A stretch of 64,000 bases of DNA from Lachnospiraceae bacterium (GTDB lineage Bacteria; Bacillota; Clostridia; Lachnospirales; Lachnospiraceae): contig JAUNWX010000008.1 of the NCBI GenBank assembly GCA_030540075.1, positions 8,638 to 72,637 of the forward strand. Direction: 5' to 3'. The notes below the pieces were generated by a model. The model was not told the DNA's origin, searched no databases, and worked only from the letters and a program-made list of their open reading frames with translations. A program made the translations under genes and the position numbers. Positions within the stretch are counted from its first letter, which is position 1, and each line of letters opens with the position of its first letter. Below are positions 43,460 to 48,547 of this stretch, in pieces.

Positions 43460-43835
43460 TAGACACGATATTAAATTTTTGCGATACGTGTATACAAAAT
43501 AGACACGAACATGCATTTTCAAAATATATGTCTACTGTTTTTCTTCCCGATGAGGTAATTTGAAGAGAAAACTATACACGGATGGCCCTATTTAAAAATC
43601 GTGTATAGAAAAAGGAGTAAAGAAGCATAGTTTCACTTACTTTTCGGGTTTTAACTATACACGATTTCTAAATTCTGTCTTTAGTGTATATTTTCATCTG
43701 AAAACCTCTGTGAAACCCTGAAAATCAGTATACACTATTTTTCATATCGACGATCCGTGTCTATAGCCCGCAATCGTGCCTTATAAATTCAAGCCAGAAC
43801 TATACACGCAGCATCTATTTTGCAATTCCTGTATA
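43460..43835. repeat. Array of six 35-bp quasi-palindromic sites TA(T/G)ACACG-N19-CGTGT(A/C)TA
   Basis: Left arms at 43460, 43500, 43573, 43656, 43729, 43801; every spacer is exactly 19 nt. Confidence 0.9.
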
Positions 43836-44088
43836 GTTTTCGCAGATACCCTCCCGGGCGACTGGATCCTCCACATGCGGTAAAGATTTTGTGATCCCTG
43901 TATAGTATAAACAGATATCGCCCGGGACGACAGGATTGCCAACACTCAGCAGCCGTCTTATGATCCCTGTATCATTAAAAGCACTCCTAATAAAAAGCAG
44001 CCTGGATCGAGATAAGCTGCTCTCAAGCAGGATATCATCACCCAGACTGCTTCCTTCCATCTGTCTATCTTTCTGTCTGAATCATCCG

Positions 44089-44901
44089 TCACCCGACGTC
44101 CGTGCTGCCTTTGCCGAAATAGTACTCCAACAGTTGCTGTACGTAGATCTCGTCCAATGGCATTTCCTGCGTTTCAAACGACATGATCAGGTTTACGCCA
44201 GGATAAATTCCATTATTCAGGTATGTCCGCATCTTCTTTATAAAATCCTGCTGATAATCCTCATCATCCATCATGCCGAAGTGTTCATAATAATAGATAT
44301 CCCCACTTTTCGGGTCTACGATCGTAAAGTCTGGATAATTTGGTTTTCTGGTATTTTCCAGTTCCAGCCTGCATTCATAACGGAATGGCAATTTCGCATT
44401 TCTCAGAAGATTATAAATCGAGCGTTCTGATTTGGAACGGACAAATTCACCGCTCACCGTCGGTACATTCAGATGTCCCGGATTCATCGGATTCTTTTCG
44501 TAATCCGCACAGGCCCACGCTTTCAGATTCTCCGGCAGATCATACAGAAATGCTTGTGTCAATTCACGAAGCGCTCCCGAGTGCTCCAGTATGTATTCGG
44601 CATGCTTGATTTTTTGCAGGCTCTTCAAGCAGCACTCATAGGCTTCGATCTGTTGCTGAATATCTTTTAATTTCGCCTGATAAACCCGCTTCAGCGCCAA
44701 CGTCTCCGCCAGTTTCCTTTCTTTTTTCGATAAATATTTCGGCTTTTGCGAACCCGGCGCGCGATAGAGCCAGCTCCAGCCCTGTGGATTCACCCGGAAG
44801 TGAATCGTTCCCTCCGGCGCCGTTTCCAGCCAGCGTTCATACTGCGCGCGTGCGCTCCGCAACCGCTCGATTTCATATTTCATTTTTTCAGATAAATCCA
44901 T
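44089..44901 (-). CDS. Hypothetical protein with a C-terminal PD-(D/E)xK/DUF559-like nuclease motif set
   Basis: AGGAGG RBS before MDLSEK; coiled N-terminus; VRSKSE, PFRYE, YPDFTI, YYYEHFGMMD, KMRTY. Confidence 0.65.
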   Translation of the reverse strand: MDLSEKMKYEIERLRSARAQYERWLETAPEGTIHFRVNPQGWSWLYRAPGSQKPKYLSKKERKLAETLALKRVYQAKLKDIQQQIEAYECCLKSLQKIKHAEYILEHSGALRELTQAFLYDLPENLKAWACADYEKNPMNPGHLNVPTVSGEFVRSKSERSIYNLLRNAKLPFRYECRLELENTRKPNYPDFTIVDPKSGDIYYYEHFGMMDDEDYQQDFIKKMRTYLNNGIYPGVNLIMSFETQEMPLDEIYVQQLLEYYFGKGSTDVG

Positions 44902-47962: not shown

Positions 47963-48211
47963 CTCGAGTAGTTCCTTTCGCTCGGAGTGTAATAATCATA
48001 ATCGCAACGACGAAATCAGAAGCCCGATTTCAGAATTAGGAAAACAGAAAACAGAAATCAAGGCCAGGTATACACTGTGACGATGGCTCGCATAGAATAT
48101 CTGCATGTATTCTTAAATAACTTCATCTTTTTGCATATACATATCGTAATATAAGTTTTTACTTTTGGCAATATCAACAAACAGACTATATTTGGTTTTT
48201 GCACATCTCAA

Positions 48212-48547
48212 TAGATAGGATTTCCTAATTAATCCCTCCGTGTATAGTTTTGCTCCGCTATAAACATAGCTATGGGATGGCACTATACACGCATCAACTG
48301 ATTTAAAAATCATATCTATGAATTTCGTCCTTCGCAAGCTTCATTAGCGTGATTTATATACATAAACTCGTATATAAATAAAATGTGTCTATTTTAAGAG
48401 CAAACATTCAAAGAAAATAGCGGTAAATTCGCAATTTCATATACACGATTTCAAAATACCATCTTGCGTATCTATTTTTACGTCCTGGATTCGCTTTTTA
48501 CTTCAAAATCTCTATACACGATTTTAAGAATAGGTCTTGCGTGTACA
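48212..48547. repeat. Array of five 35-bp sites TA(T/G)ACACG-N19-CGTGT(A/C)TA, mirror image of 43500-43835
   Basis: Left arms at 48212, 48284, 48357, 48440, 48513; all spacers 19 nt. Confidence 0.88.

Follow-up and report, generated by a model that had tools for sequence, protein, structure and literature searches.

Site arrays flank and co-vary with a putative nuclease-fold protein in Oribacterium and recur around its homologues in other Lachnospiraceae

Background

Several described systems combine a DNA-acting protein with clustered copies of its sites. At the ends of Tn7, Mu, En/Spm and Ac, a short binding motif is repeated in both orientations over ~300-400 bp at both borders of the segment that encodes the binder. 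REP/BIME sequences and their RAYT proteins (REPtrons) link ~35-bp imperfect palindromes, clustered in intergenic DNA and inverted on the flanks of the acting protein's gene, with co-evolution of repeat and protein. In iteron/Rep, ParR-parC and TubR-tubC systems, phased arrays of 4-10 cognate sites lie by the binder gene and private specificities co-evolve fast; this fast, private co-evolution is seen in plasmid incompatibility, and binding in these systems is cooperative and higher-order and autoregulates the gene. Here we analyzed a locus that resembles each of these in part. It lies in a 64,000-nucleotide stretch, hereafter the window, of a Lachnospiraceae bacterium genome (GenBank assembly GCA_030540075.1, contig JAUNWX010000008.1, positions 8,638 to 72,637), where two arrays of 35-bp bipartite sites enclose a RecQ-like gene and a gene, X, for a small protein with a putative nuclease fold.

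Three further kinds of system are relevant for comparison. Free-standing homing endonucleases of the phage Seg/Mob type are small modular proteins with a variable DNA-recognition module and a nuclease domain; they are not known to keep arrays of their sites around the gene, and what they target is the allele that lacks it. Helicase-nuclease fusions (PDC-S68 and plasmid proteins annotated 'AAA family ATPase' or 'RecQ') are single proteins of 660-1,220 aa, some encoded beside restriction-modification or toxin-antitoxin genes, with no site arrays reported. In TIGR-Tas, a Nop domain of the box C/D snoRNP type defines the Tas effector, and the TIGR units are direct and contiguous with a 36-nt period, holding two repeats (edge/loop or stems) and two spacers of 9 nt (8-12 nt); the arrays lie up- and/or downstream of a small coiled-coil effector gene, have locus-specific repeats and occur in gut metagenomes (PMC12045711).

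Results

Two arrays of conserved geometry enclose the RecQ-like and X genes

We scored the site motif TATACACG-N19-CGTGTATA across the whole window and found 11-12 sites of the form TA(T/G)ACACG-N19-CGTGT(A/C)TA, all with a spacer of 19 nt and confined to two arrays (Table 1). The left array is downstream of X and upstream of a TauE gene, and the right array sits between the terminator of an ABC-transporter operon and a promoter-like site of the RecQ-like/X operon. Nine sites have at most three mismatches, the degenerate ones at 43500, 48357 and 43870 have four, and no site with three or fewer mismatches lies outside the arrays in the full 64 kb. First-order Markov nulls gave a mean of 0.08 sites per 64 kb at window composition and 0.34 at array composition, with at most one site within any 400 bp, and in a shuffle test 7 matches were seen against 1.4 expected (0/100 shuffles reached 7). 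A chance origin of the arrays is excluded. Start-to-start spacings are 40, 73, 83, 73, 72 and 69 bp in the left array, the last being the distance to a weak seventh site, and 72, 73, 83 and 73 bp in the right array. The oriented sites, N19 spacers and 73/83/73/72 spacing reported in a preliminary description of this DNA were thus confirmed by the motif scan and the nulls. Outward, the motif runs into A/T tracts (AAAA-n-TATACACG ... CGTGTATA-n-TTTT). Tandem Repeats Finder (TRF) did not detect the window arrays.

Sites within an array are of mixed orientation (R,R,F,F,R; R, reverse; F, forward). The four-site core (R,R, an 83-bp gap, F,F) is dyad-symmetric in itself, and superimposing the two arrays directly or as mirror images therefore gives no better fit one way than the other (40% and 42.5% identity, respectively, outside the arms). 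The mirror image seen earlier is therefore partly a by-product of self-symmetric arrays; what stands of it hinges on the fifth site, found in either array on the side facing the genes, 72 bp away from the core. When the left array and the opposite strand of the right one are aligned in register with a third array found at a related locus, L004 (loci other than the window are designated by L numbers), identity is ~50% and the sites alone are conserved, and the left-array site positions are kept in the orthologous arrays of L001 and L004. It is thus the geometry that is conserved and not the sequence between sites, in agreement with the heavy inter-site divergence noted before.

Arrays and X vary together within Oribacterium

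We recovered six Oribacterium loci with X by genome scan and four more via relatives of the neighbouring TauE gene, and found that the array architecture recurs. Arrays flank the RecQ-like/X pair on both sides in every full X locus (window, L001-L006, L094 and L095); in L012, a short contig ending at the RecQ-like C-terminus, an array is visible only downstream of X. The X-bearing loci share 35-bp units at 72-75-bp (or 83-bp) spacing and fall into four half-site classes, namely class A (TATACACG; window, L001, L004), class B (TATATTAT; L003, L005), class C (TATCCACT; L002, L006, L012) and class D (TATATACG; L094, L095).

The X tree follows array class: nucleotide identity is 89-98% among class A members and falls to 70-73% when A is compared with B or C. 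The RecQ-like tree (first 1200 nt) groups the window with L005 (95%) and L004 with L002 and L006 (~98%), with ~86% between the groups, and the flanks behave alike. Both arrays are unalignable across classes even at 92-98% RecQ-like identity. Between L004 (class A) and L006 (class C), synonymous divergence (pS) is 0 in X codons 1-27 and saturated from codon 28 on, which marks a sharp allele boundary. Given this boundary and the discordant trees, X from codon ~28 plus both arrays behave as an ancient allelic type, and the sequence comparison indicates that this type is exchanged independently of the RecQ-like gene lying between X and the upstream array. Gene co-occurrence, which had been put forward as a check, thus holds for X, which tracks the arrays, but not for the RecQ-like gene; X as the probable binder and the family-wide spread described below had not been foreseen.

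The hairpin region of X is the candidate specificity determinant

Homologues of X number in the hundreds, are ~260 aa long and come mainly from Lachnospiraceae such as Roseburia and Eubacterium. Against 1.84 billion cluster representatives, an X profile retrieved 3,551 at E<=1e-30 and 8,874 at E<=1e-3 (X family clusters defined at 50% identity). No family assignment was obtained from Pfam (even at E<=1), NCBIfam, PHROG or profile-versus-PDB searches. The AlphaFold2 model of X has a predicted local distance difference test score (pLDDT) of 92.5 at full length and 93.5 for the N-terminal domain alone, and shows, in order, a helix (residues 2-25), a beta-hairpin (31-46) with a short third strand, a 40-residue helix, a helical linker and a C-terminal alpha/beta domain.

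In the C-terminal model, strands and helices follow the order expected for a PD-(D/E)xK core, which is alpha-beta-beta-beta-alpha-beta with acidic residues on its conserved strands, and E158 (RSKSE motif), D190 (PDF) and E205/H206 (EHFG) are invariant across 47 diverse members; the position of the canonical Lys is occupied by Phe. Foldseek matches of this domain were weak (MunI, R2 RLE, DrdV and viral DUF2726, 'restriction enzyme' and 'homing endonuclease' proteins, E 1e-3 to 0.1). The assignment to the PD-(D/E)xK fold is accordingly reasonable but not strong. PADLOC matched PDC-S68 to X over the C-terminus, where HEAT_CxxC_PD-DEXK is also homologous, and the domain is homologous to the C-terminus of larger plasmid proteins annotated 'AAA family ATPase', 'RecD-like' or 'RecQ' (30-46% identity over 80-190 aa in the helicase-nuclease fusions). 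It stands at the extreme C-terminus of a 662-aa RecQ on Aulosira laxa plasmid3 (L092, 3369-5357) and ends a 1,202-aa AAA ATPase on Paracoccus p7 (L093, 947-4555), adjoined by a type ISP restriction-modification gene and toxin-antitoxin pairs. Unlike these fusions, X is a stand-alone protein with its own hairpin domain. Full-length X was absent from the phage and plasmid collections, in which plasmids carried the nuclease domain only, fused to bigger helicase/ATPase proteins; three unannotated faecal 'Bacteriophage sp.' contigs matched part of X (up to residues 55-257, 31% identity). A likeness of the X hairpin to a phage-integrase arm-binding or AP2-like domain, suggested by the sequence pattern, was dropped, as no Int or AP2 entry was among the Foldseek top 50 for the isolated N-terminal model.

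Class-specific substitutions in X are highest at residues 31-60. Between classes with different half-sites, nonsynonymous divergence (pN) is 0.32-0.38 in codons 28-60, whereas the nuclease domain has 0.06-0.12. The B and C proteins are similar overall despite different half-sites, and they differ most at residues 28-60 (pN 0.38, vs 0.06 for the nuclease domain). For A and D, with half-sites one base apart, the converse holds: the pair is distant overall (pN 0.34 at residues 61-140), and residues 28-60 are where it differs least (0.14). From this double dissociation we infer that the hairpin region of X sets half-site specificity.

The enclosed segment inverts, an array is gained, and X and arrays are absent together

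Set against the same flanks (ABC transporter and TauE), the RecQ-like/X segment runs forward in four loci (window, L001, L004 and L005) and has the inverted orientation in four others (L002, L006, L094 and L095), so that this comparison between genomes answers in the affirmative the earlier question of whether the segment inverts in relatives. L004 and L006 are ~97-98% identical in flanks and RecQ-like gene and have opposite segment orientations, which implies at least two inversions. The breakpoints fall within the unalignable stretches that hold the arrays. Given that left and right arrays share only 8-bp arms, homologous (RecA-dependent) recombination is an unlikely cause.

An array has also been gained. 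L004 carries a third array (11850-12185) with 73/83/73/72 spacing, which takes the place of ~100 bp of a neighbouring intergenic region. The same intergenic region, between the arginase-like and thiamine pyrophosphate (TPP)-enzyme genes, holds a ParE/PhD toxin-antitoxin pair in the class D loci L094 (10001-10571) and L095 (9433-10003). An unannotated open reading frame (ORF) of 373-387 aa lies between the upstream array and TauE in class D genomes.

In L096, from a more distant Oribacterium, the RecQ-like gene occurs alone, at the same place and in flank-matched orientation, with short intergenic regions, no X and no arrays; L097 has neither RecQ-like gene nor X at the locus. Since L096 has the RecQ-like gene alone and the RecQ-like phylogeny follows the flanks, this gene is a resident of the locus, and X and the arrays come and go jointly. 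The preliminary idea that the 4.4-kb two-gene segment moves as one unit was thus not upheld, only X and the arrays travelling together.

X homologues lie among arrays in other lineages

Outside Oribacterium, X is a solo gene amid unrelated housekeeping genes, with no RecQ, the surrounding DNA being extended non-coding sequence in which 30-38-bp palindromic units with lineage-specific arms form arrays. TRF arrays (period 45-110) within 700 bp of X genes were 12-fold enriched (0.41 vs 0.034 per kb), and 37 of 88 loci had at least five palindromic-arm sites within 900 bp of X, well above shuffles and with 25 distinct arm motifs. Array periods across lineages are 51-52, 63, 71-75, 83 and 91 bp. 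Upstream of X, for instance, GCCCCG-N15-CGGGGC recurs at a 52-bp period in 2 to 9 copies between strains (L069, L067), and GGGTAT-N21-ATACCC at a 51-bp period in up to 10 copies, with single sites downstream (L013-L028). GGGCACA-type units (L061) have a 63-bp period on both sides of X (F,F,F / R,R,R), and TAGGCA-type units (L011) an 83-bp period downstream of it. Around the solo X of L053, TGTACAT-N21-ATGTACA forms four sites per side (91/51/91), the downstream array being site by site the reverse complement of the upstream one, a cleaner mirror case than the window. Further distant solo-X loci with arrays are L037 and L016.

Two X paralogues may also share a genome region. In L064, L071, L072 and L084, divergent paralogues ~5 kb apart (about 20-1160 minus and 5926-6705 plus) each have their own array type, a GGGCACAGC-type array at a 52-bp period vs a 71-bp-period repeat. 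On contig Ga0256404_1000184, two paralogues lie ~36 kb apart (L033, L039). RNA-seq contigs of L026 ('organism B') show that the X homologue is transcribed, and upstream repeats break the assemblies; repeat units at L026 5694-5859 and 6646-6704 are joined to at least six other sequence contexts in these contigs. The X homologue of this strain also has a 57-nt in-frame deletion. In L009, an integrated element (9571-14013; tyrosine integrase, HTH_17, Viral_Rep) adjoins the tRNA gene that follows the X homologue; the element has no relation to X and is missing from the otherwise identical loci L007, L008 and L010.

The RecQ-like protein is a degenerate helicase

Alignment to a solved RecQ substantiated the motif degeneracy noted in the preliminary description: Walker A GGGKS is VGQLR, DEAH is DEAQ, and motif VI QETGRAGRDG is QEVVHAGCDG, with its arginines lost. 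The protein scores 274 bits against the NCBIfam recQ cut-off of 640. The ATPase-motif degeneracy is common to all Oribacterium RecQ-like orthologues, including that of the X-less L096, whose Walker A is degenerate too. By sequence, then, the protein is a predicted ATPase-dead pseudo-helicase. PADLOC gave DpdF and PsyrT matches and one marginal 'possible alternative Cas3' match to the helicase core (E 2e-6).

A partnership of helicase and X-type nuclease recurs, fused in Aulosira and adjacent in Oribacterium, which suggests that the position of X beside a RecQ paralogue may be functional; limiting this link, the Oribacterium partner is ATPase-dead and most X lineages are without RecQ. The RecQ-like proteins range from 731 to 1,384 aa among Oribacterium genomes and carry in-frame 39-42-nt tandem repeats (13-14-aa units) and other low-complexity inserts (the window gene; L004, 3733-7683; L006; L094, 1785-5549).

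Locus context

The RecQ-like gene is predicted to be co-transcribed with X from a promoter-like site just inside the right array (Table 1). The locus flanks are housekeeping genes, with TauE, an arginase-like gene and a TPP enzyme on the left and an ABC-2 transporter on the right. As the preliminary description had it, no integrase or transposase is in sight: Pfam scans of both enclosed genes, of the genes next to them and of 20 more ORFs at 1.1-35.6 kb gave no match to an integrase, a transposase or a serine or tyrosine recombinase. Scanned window proteins likewise gave no Y1_Tnp or Cas-family Pfam match. The window has no tRNA gene, and thus no tRNA attachment site is involved. Sequencing runs matching the window locus reached at most 10% of locus words and were all wastewater metagenomes.

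Table 1 Features of the window locus (positions in the 64-kb window)
Feature	Position	Strand	Description
Left array	43460..43835	unstranded	six 35-bp bipartite sites; starts 43460, 43500, 43573, 43656, 43729, 43801
Weak seventh left-array site	43870-43904		found by motif score
Gene X	44089..44901	-	270 aa; start ATG at 44901; N-terminal hairpin domain and putative C-terminal PD-(D/E)xK fold; proposed array binder
X nuclease-fold domain, residues ~141-262	44113..44478	-	putative; invariant residues, AlphaFold2 model, weak Foldseek matches
X codons 28-60 (beta-hairpin and next loop)	44719..44817	-	hypervariable between array classes; proposed half-site specificity determinant
RecQ-like pseudo-helicase, 999 aa	44963..47962	-	Helicase_C and HRDC; degenerate ATPase motifs; resident gene between arrays
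Promoter-like site TTGATA-18-TATATT	48148..48177	-	consensus match only; just inside right array; placed for RecQ-like gene and X
Right array	48212..48547	unstranded	five 35-bp sites; starts 48212, 48284, 48357, 48440, 48513
Strong terminator-like hairpin	48563..48596	-	end of upstream ABC operon; outer boundary of right array

Elsewhere in the window, positions 1-~31000 hold a cell-wall/capsular polysaccharide cluster with glycosyltransferases, two Bac_transf priming transferases, Wzy_C, LytR_cpsA_psr, an ABC-2 exporter, an acyltransferase and a choline-binding-repeat protein. GC content is 34-44% over the first ~17 kb, vs 58-66% in most of the window, and the GC skew switches sign near 20-24 kb. 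The cluster looks like a glycan-variable region subject to horizontal exchange. Within a 771-aa LytR_cpsA_psr ORF lies a 165-nt tandem repeat (1.8 copies, 80% identity; 20906-21212). Local low-GC pockets at 26721-27995 and 32154-33617 encode an AAA_14/DUF4143 ATPase and a Schlafen AlbA_2 / HATPase_c_4 / Fic-like_C protein, respectively; AAA_14/DUF4143 and Schlafen-type proteins are frequent in defence or mobile contexts.

Discussion

Very probably, X and the arrays belong together as a cognate pair of protein and sites. The arrays would be clusters of bipartite duplex-DNA binding sites for X, which is encoded between them, each site consisting of two 8-bp half-sites with centres 27 bp apart and A/T tracts outside. 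The hypervariable beta-hairpin region of X (residues ~28-60) would read a half-site, with X probably assembled into a coiled-coil dimer or a larger oligomer, and the 72-83-bp spacing of sites (51-52, 63 and 91 bp elsewhere) would let many X molecules build one large complex per array. Two such complexes, each on a self-symmetric array, would bracket the X transcription unit. A multi-subunit nucleoprotein assembly, as suggested earlier, is thus still the best reading of the geometry, and its substrate would be double-stranded DNA. Given that the right array abuts the promoter, binding by X probably also autoregulates the operon.

X and its arrays would make up a self-contained module, a closed system acting on itself, in which protein and sites shift specificity together and which, in Oribacterium, came to enclose a resident ATPase-dead RecQ paralogue. 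The putative nuclease of X may act in cis on its own arrays, akin to a transposase or homing nuclease on subterminal sites, and such action would explain the inversions, array gain, changes in unit number and allele replacement. Of the roles considered, a recombinogenic or selfish one is the most likely, and we put it forward tentatively, as a possibility; for X-bound arrays forming a selfish recombinogenic module as the best explanation overall, we see about an even chance. Rather doubtful at present is the broader proposal that the X family is an unrecognised class of DNA-rearranging selfish elements, whose sole enzyme is a PD-(D/E)xK nuclease aimed by the hairpin at private arrays. Such elements would spread or persist via site-specific breakage and repair (homing-like replacement, inversion, array seeding), without known transposase or recombinase chemistry.

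Several observations weigh against this explanation. The canonical Lys of (D/E)xK is replaced (EHF), so that nuclease activity of X is putative, and Foldseek found no DNA-binding homologue of the hairpin domain, the best matches being prefoldin and chromoshadow-like folds (E>0.05). No near-identical copies of the module were seen at different sites, the locus being syntenic in all Oribacterium genomes recovered, and the window sequence has no direct repeat outside the outermost sites that would mark a target-site duplication. A P0014-type X gene had one fixed context in every contig examined, despite 917 indexed collection blocks. In many lineages X has a one-sided direct tandem array, unlike transposon ends. 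The L026-lineage repeat units may be dispersed in the genome, which would weaken the claim of a closed system there. Summed BLAST scores between arrays of different classes, which bear on whether arrays flip with the segment, were swamped by palindromic-repeat noise. Strict helical phasing also fails as a general rule, in that 51-52, 63, 73 and 83 bp are whole turns and 40, 69, 79 and 91 bp are not.

The main rival is a purely regulatory or architectural role, in which the arrays are operator, insulator or looping sites and X represses or insulates its own operon with no DNA breakage, the inversions and array changes being incidental. The right array lies directly between the upstream terminator and the promoter-like site of the operon, an array is immediately upstream of X in many solo-X loci, two arrays around a transcription unit would suit looping repression, and X lacks the canonical catalytic Lys. 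However, no other target of X is visible, which would make it a self-only regulator without evident purpose, and 5-10 sites on both sides go far beyond what autoregulation needs. Nor would regulation account for acidic active-site residues that are invariant across a very diverse family, for recurrent inversion (at least two lineages) between arrays without long homology, or for allelic classes swapped against the species tree. We regard this rival as fairly unlikely, though it deserves to be kept in view. Neutral, decaying tandem duplication of AT-rich intergenic DNA would fit the plain high-identity tandem repeats that form the arrays of some lineages, but in Oribacterium half-sites and their positions are conserved while the rest has decayed to ~40-50% identity, the same geometry spans four half-site classes, and nulls give <1 site per 64 kb; this reading is effectively refuted.

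The units might instead be RNA or ssDNA hairpins, either REP/BIME-like with X as a RAYT analogue or a guide-RNA array of CRISPR/TIGR type, in keeping with the folded ssDNA/RNA alternative of the preliminary description. Each unit begins and ends in inverted 8-nt arms that enclose a variable centre of 19 nt, and its length of 35 nt is near tigRNA size; the X homologue and its flanks are transcribed in a relative (L026), where upstream repeats are common to other transcripts; and TIGR stem-loop arrays likewise flank an effector gene with a coiled-coil domain (PMC12045711). Arm deviations in 28 class-A units, however, are not compensated, with 56 one-sided and 10 two-sided against 9.5 two-sided expected under independence (two poor sites in the set inflate the deviation counts and leave the conclusion unaffected). 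Both orientations occur in one array, unlike a processed unidirectional transcript, and comparison of orthologous arrays shows neutral drift of the variable centres. A hairpin whose 8-bp A/T-rich stem closes a loop of 19 nt would be weak, X has no Nop, HUH or Cas-type domain, and 43000-49000 had no Rfam match at E<=1. Given the uncompensated arms, mixed orientation, drifting centres and lack of an Rfam match, independent half-sites on duplex DNA are favoured; a hairpin or guide-RNA nature of the units is unlikely, and we give this rival little credence. Slighter still is the case for the ends of a conventional transposon or invertible element, served by a transposase or recombinase encoded outside and carrying X and the RecQ-like gene as cargo. 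The arrays do resemble the inverted ends of Tn7, Mu or En/Spm, with their several subterminal sites, and the segment does invert in relatives, but array class co-varies with X and nothing outside the locus, the association with arrays extends to thousands of unrelated contexts in which X is the sole constant gene, and neither a transposase or recombinase in the scanned ORFs nor a target-site duplication was found. Equally improbable is a chromosome-structure device, such as a fork barrier, a terminus trap (Tus/Ter or RTP-like) or a partition centromere, with X as site binder. Opposed arrays of oriented sites flank the binder gene here, opposed oriented sites flank the binder's gene at rtp with TerI/II in Bacillus, and parC and tubC centromeres are phased multi-site arrays. 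A genome, however, may have several paralogues with private specificities, some 5 kb apart; orientation is mixed within an array, which is therefore not polar; no ParA or TubZ-type partner is present; and the module is missing from close relatives at the same locus and varies in unit number between strains.

With X-bound arrays as the preferred explanation, we compared the module with the known systems feature by feature. Like Tn7/Mu-type ends, its borders are mutually inverted (five to six sites per side) and the segment rearranges in relatives; unlike them, it has no DDE, HUH, serine or tyrosine enzyme, a PD-(D/E)xK fold protein being the only candidate, and it shows no target-site duplication and no recently transposed copies, with arrays one-sided in many X members and a RecQ-like gene that is resident, not cargo. 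A DDE transposon, which would encode a DDE transposase and, for Tn7, TnsA/B/C-type partners, was rejected because, despite multi-site inverted ends, no transposase family occurs in the scanned ORFs; a site-specific invertible element was set aside likewise, as both segment orientations are found between genomes yet no serine or tyrosine recombinase occurs in those ORFs. RAYT is an IS200/IS605-like HUH Y1 transposase that acts on ssDNA hairpins, whereas X has a putative PD-(D/E)xK fold, the arms show no compensatory change, and the sites are regularly spaced at ~73 bp and not dispersed (none elsewhere in the 64 kb). Homing endonucleases share with X a phylogeny discordant with the neighbours and local allele replacement at a sharp boundary, and X has its weak Foldseek match to a 'homing endonuclease' protein, but arrays around the gene set the module apart. 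In contrast to iteron and centromere systems, the module is chromosomal, its proposed binder has a nuclease fold, no Rep, ParA, ParM or TubZ partner is present, and its sites are 35-bp bipartite palindromes 50-90 bp apart, against 11-22-bp contiguous iterons. TIGR-Tas also has ~36-nt units, some with palindromic stems, by a small coiled-coil effector gene; it was rejected because X has no Nop domain (Pfam at E<=1; Foldseek against PDB and viral libraries) and the geometry differs, with 35-bp units ~38 bp apart, a period of 72-83 bp, a 19-nt centre and mixed orientations. A CRISPR array, with its near-identical direct repeats between unique spacers and its nearby cas genes and leader, was discarded since the units share only 8-bp arms in both orientations and Pfam scans found no Cas family. 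CRISPR, TIGR-Tas, REP/RAYT, DDE transposon, invertase and iteron/centromere systems thus each fail at least one defining feature, and we rate the X/array module as probably outside the known kinds of system, with a function proposed from comparison of loci. No description of it was found in the literature on repeat-associated PD-(D/E)xK proteins, on DUF2726 with inverted repeats or on non-CRISPR repeat arrays.

Conclusions

If this explanation is true, X would represent a very large overlooked family, common in human and animal gut Lachnospiraceae and without a Pfam, NCBIfam or PHROG model. X and its arrays would be a new cis/trans pair to stand beside transposases and their ends, Rep and iterons, ParB and parS, and RAYT and REP, and would offer an explanation for a class of intergenic repeat arrays, and of local inversions, so far unaccounted for in gut Firmicutes. 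Given that the hairpin seems to dictate the 8-bp half-site, X would be a naturally reprogrammable DNA-recognition module, and its natural matched pairs of hairpin and half-site may offer a readable recognition code.

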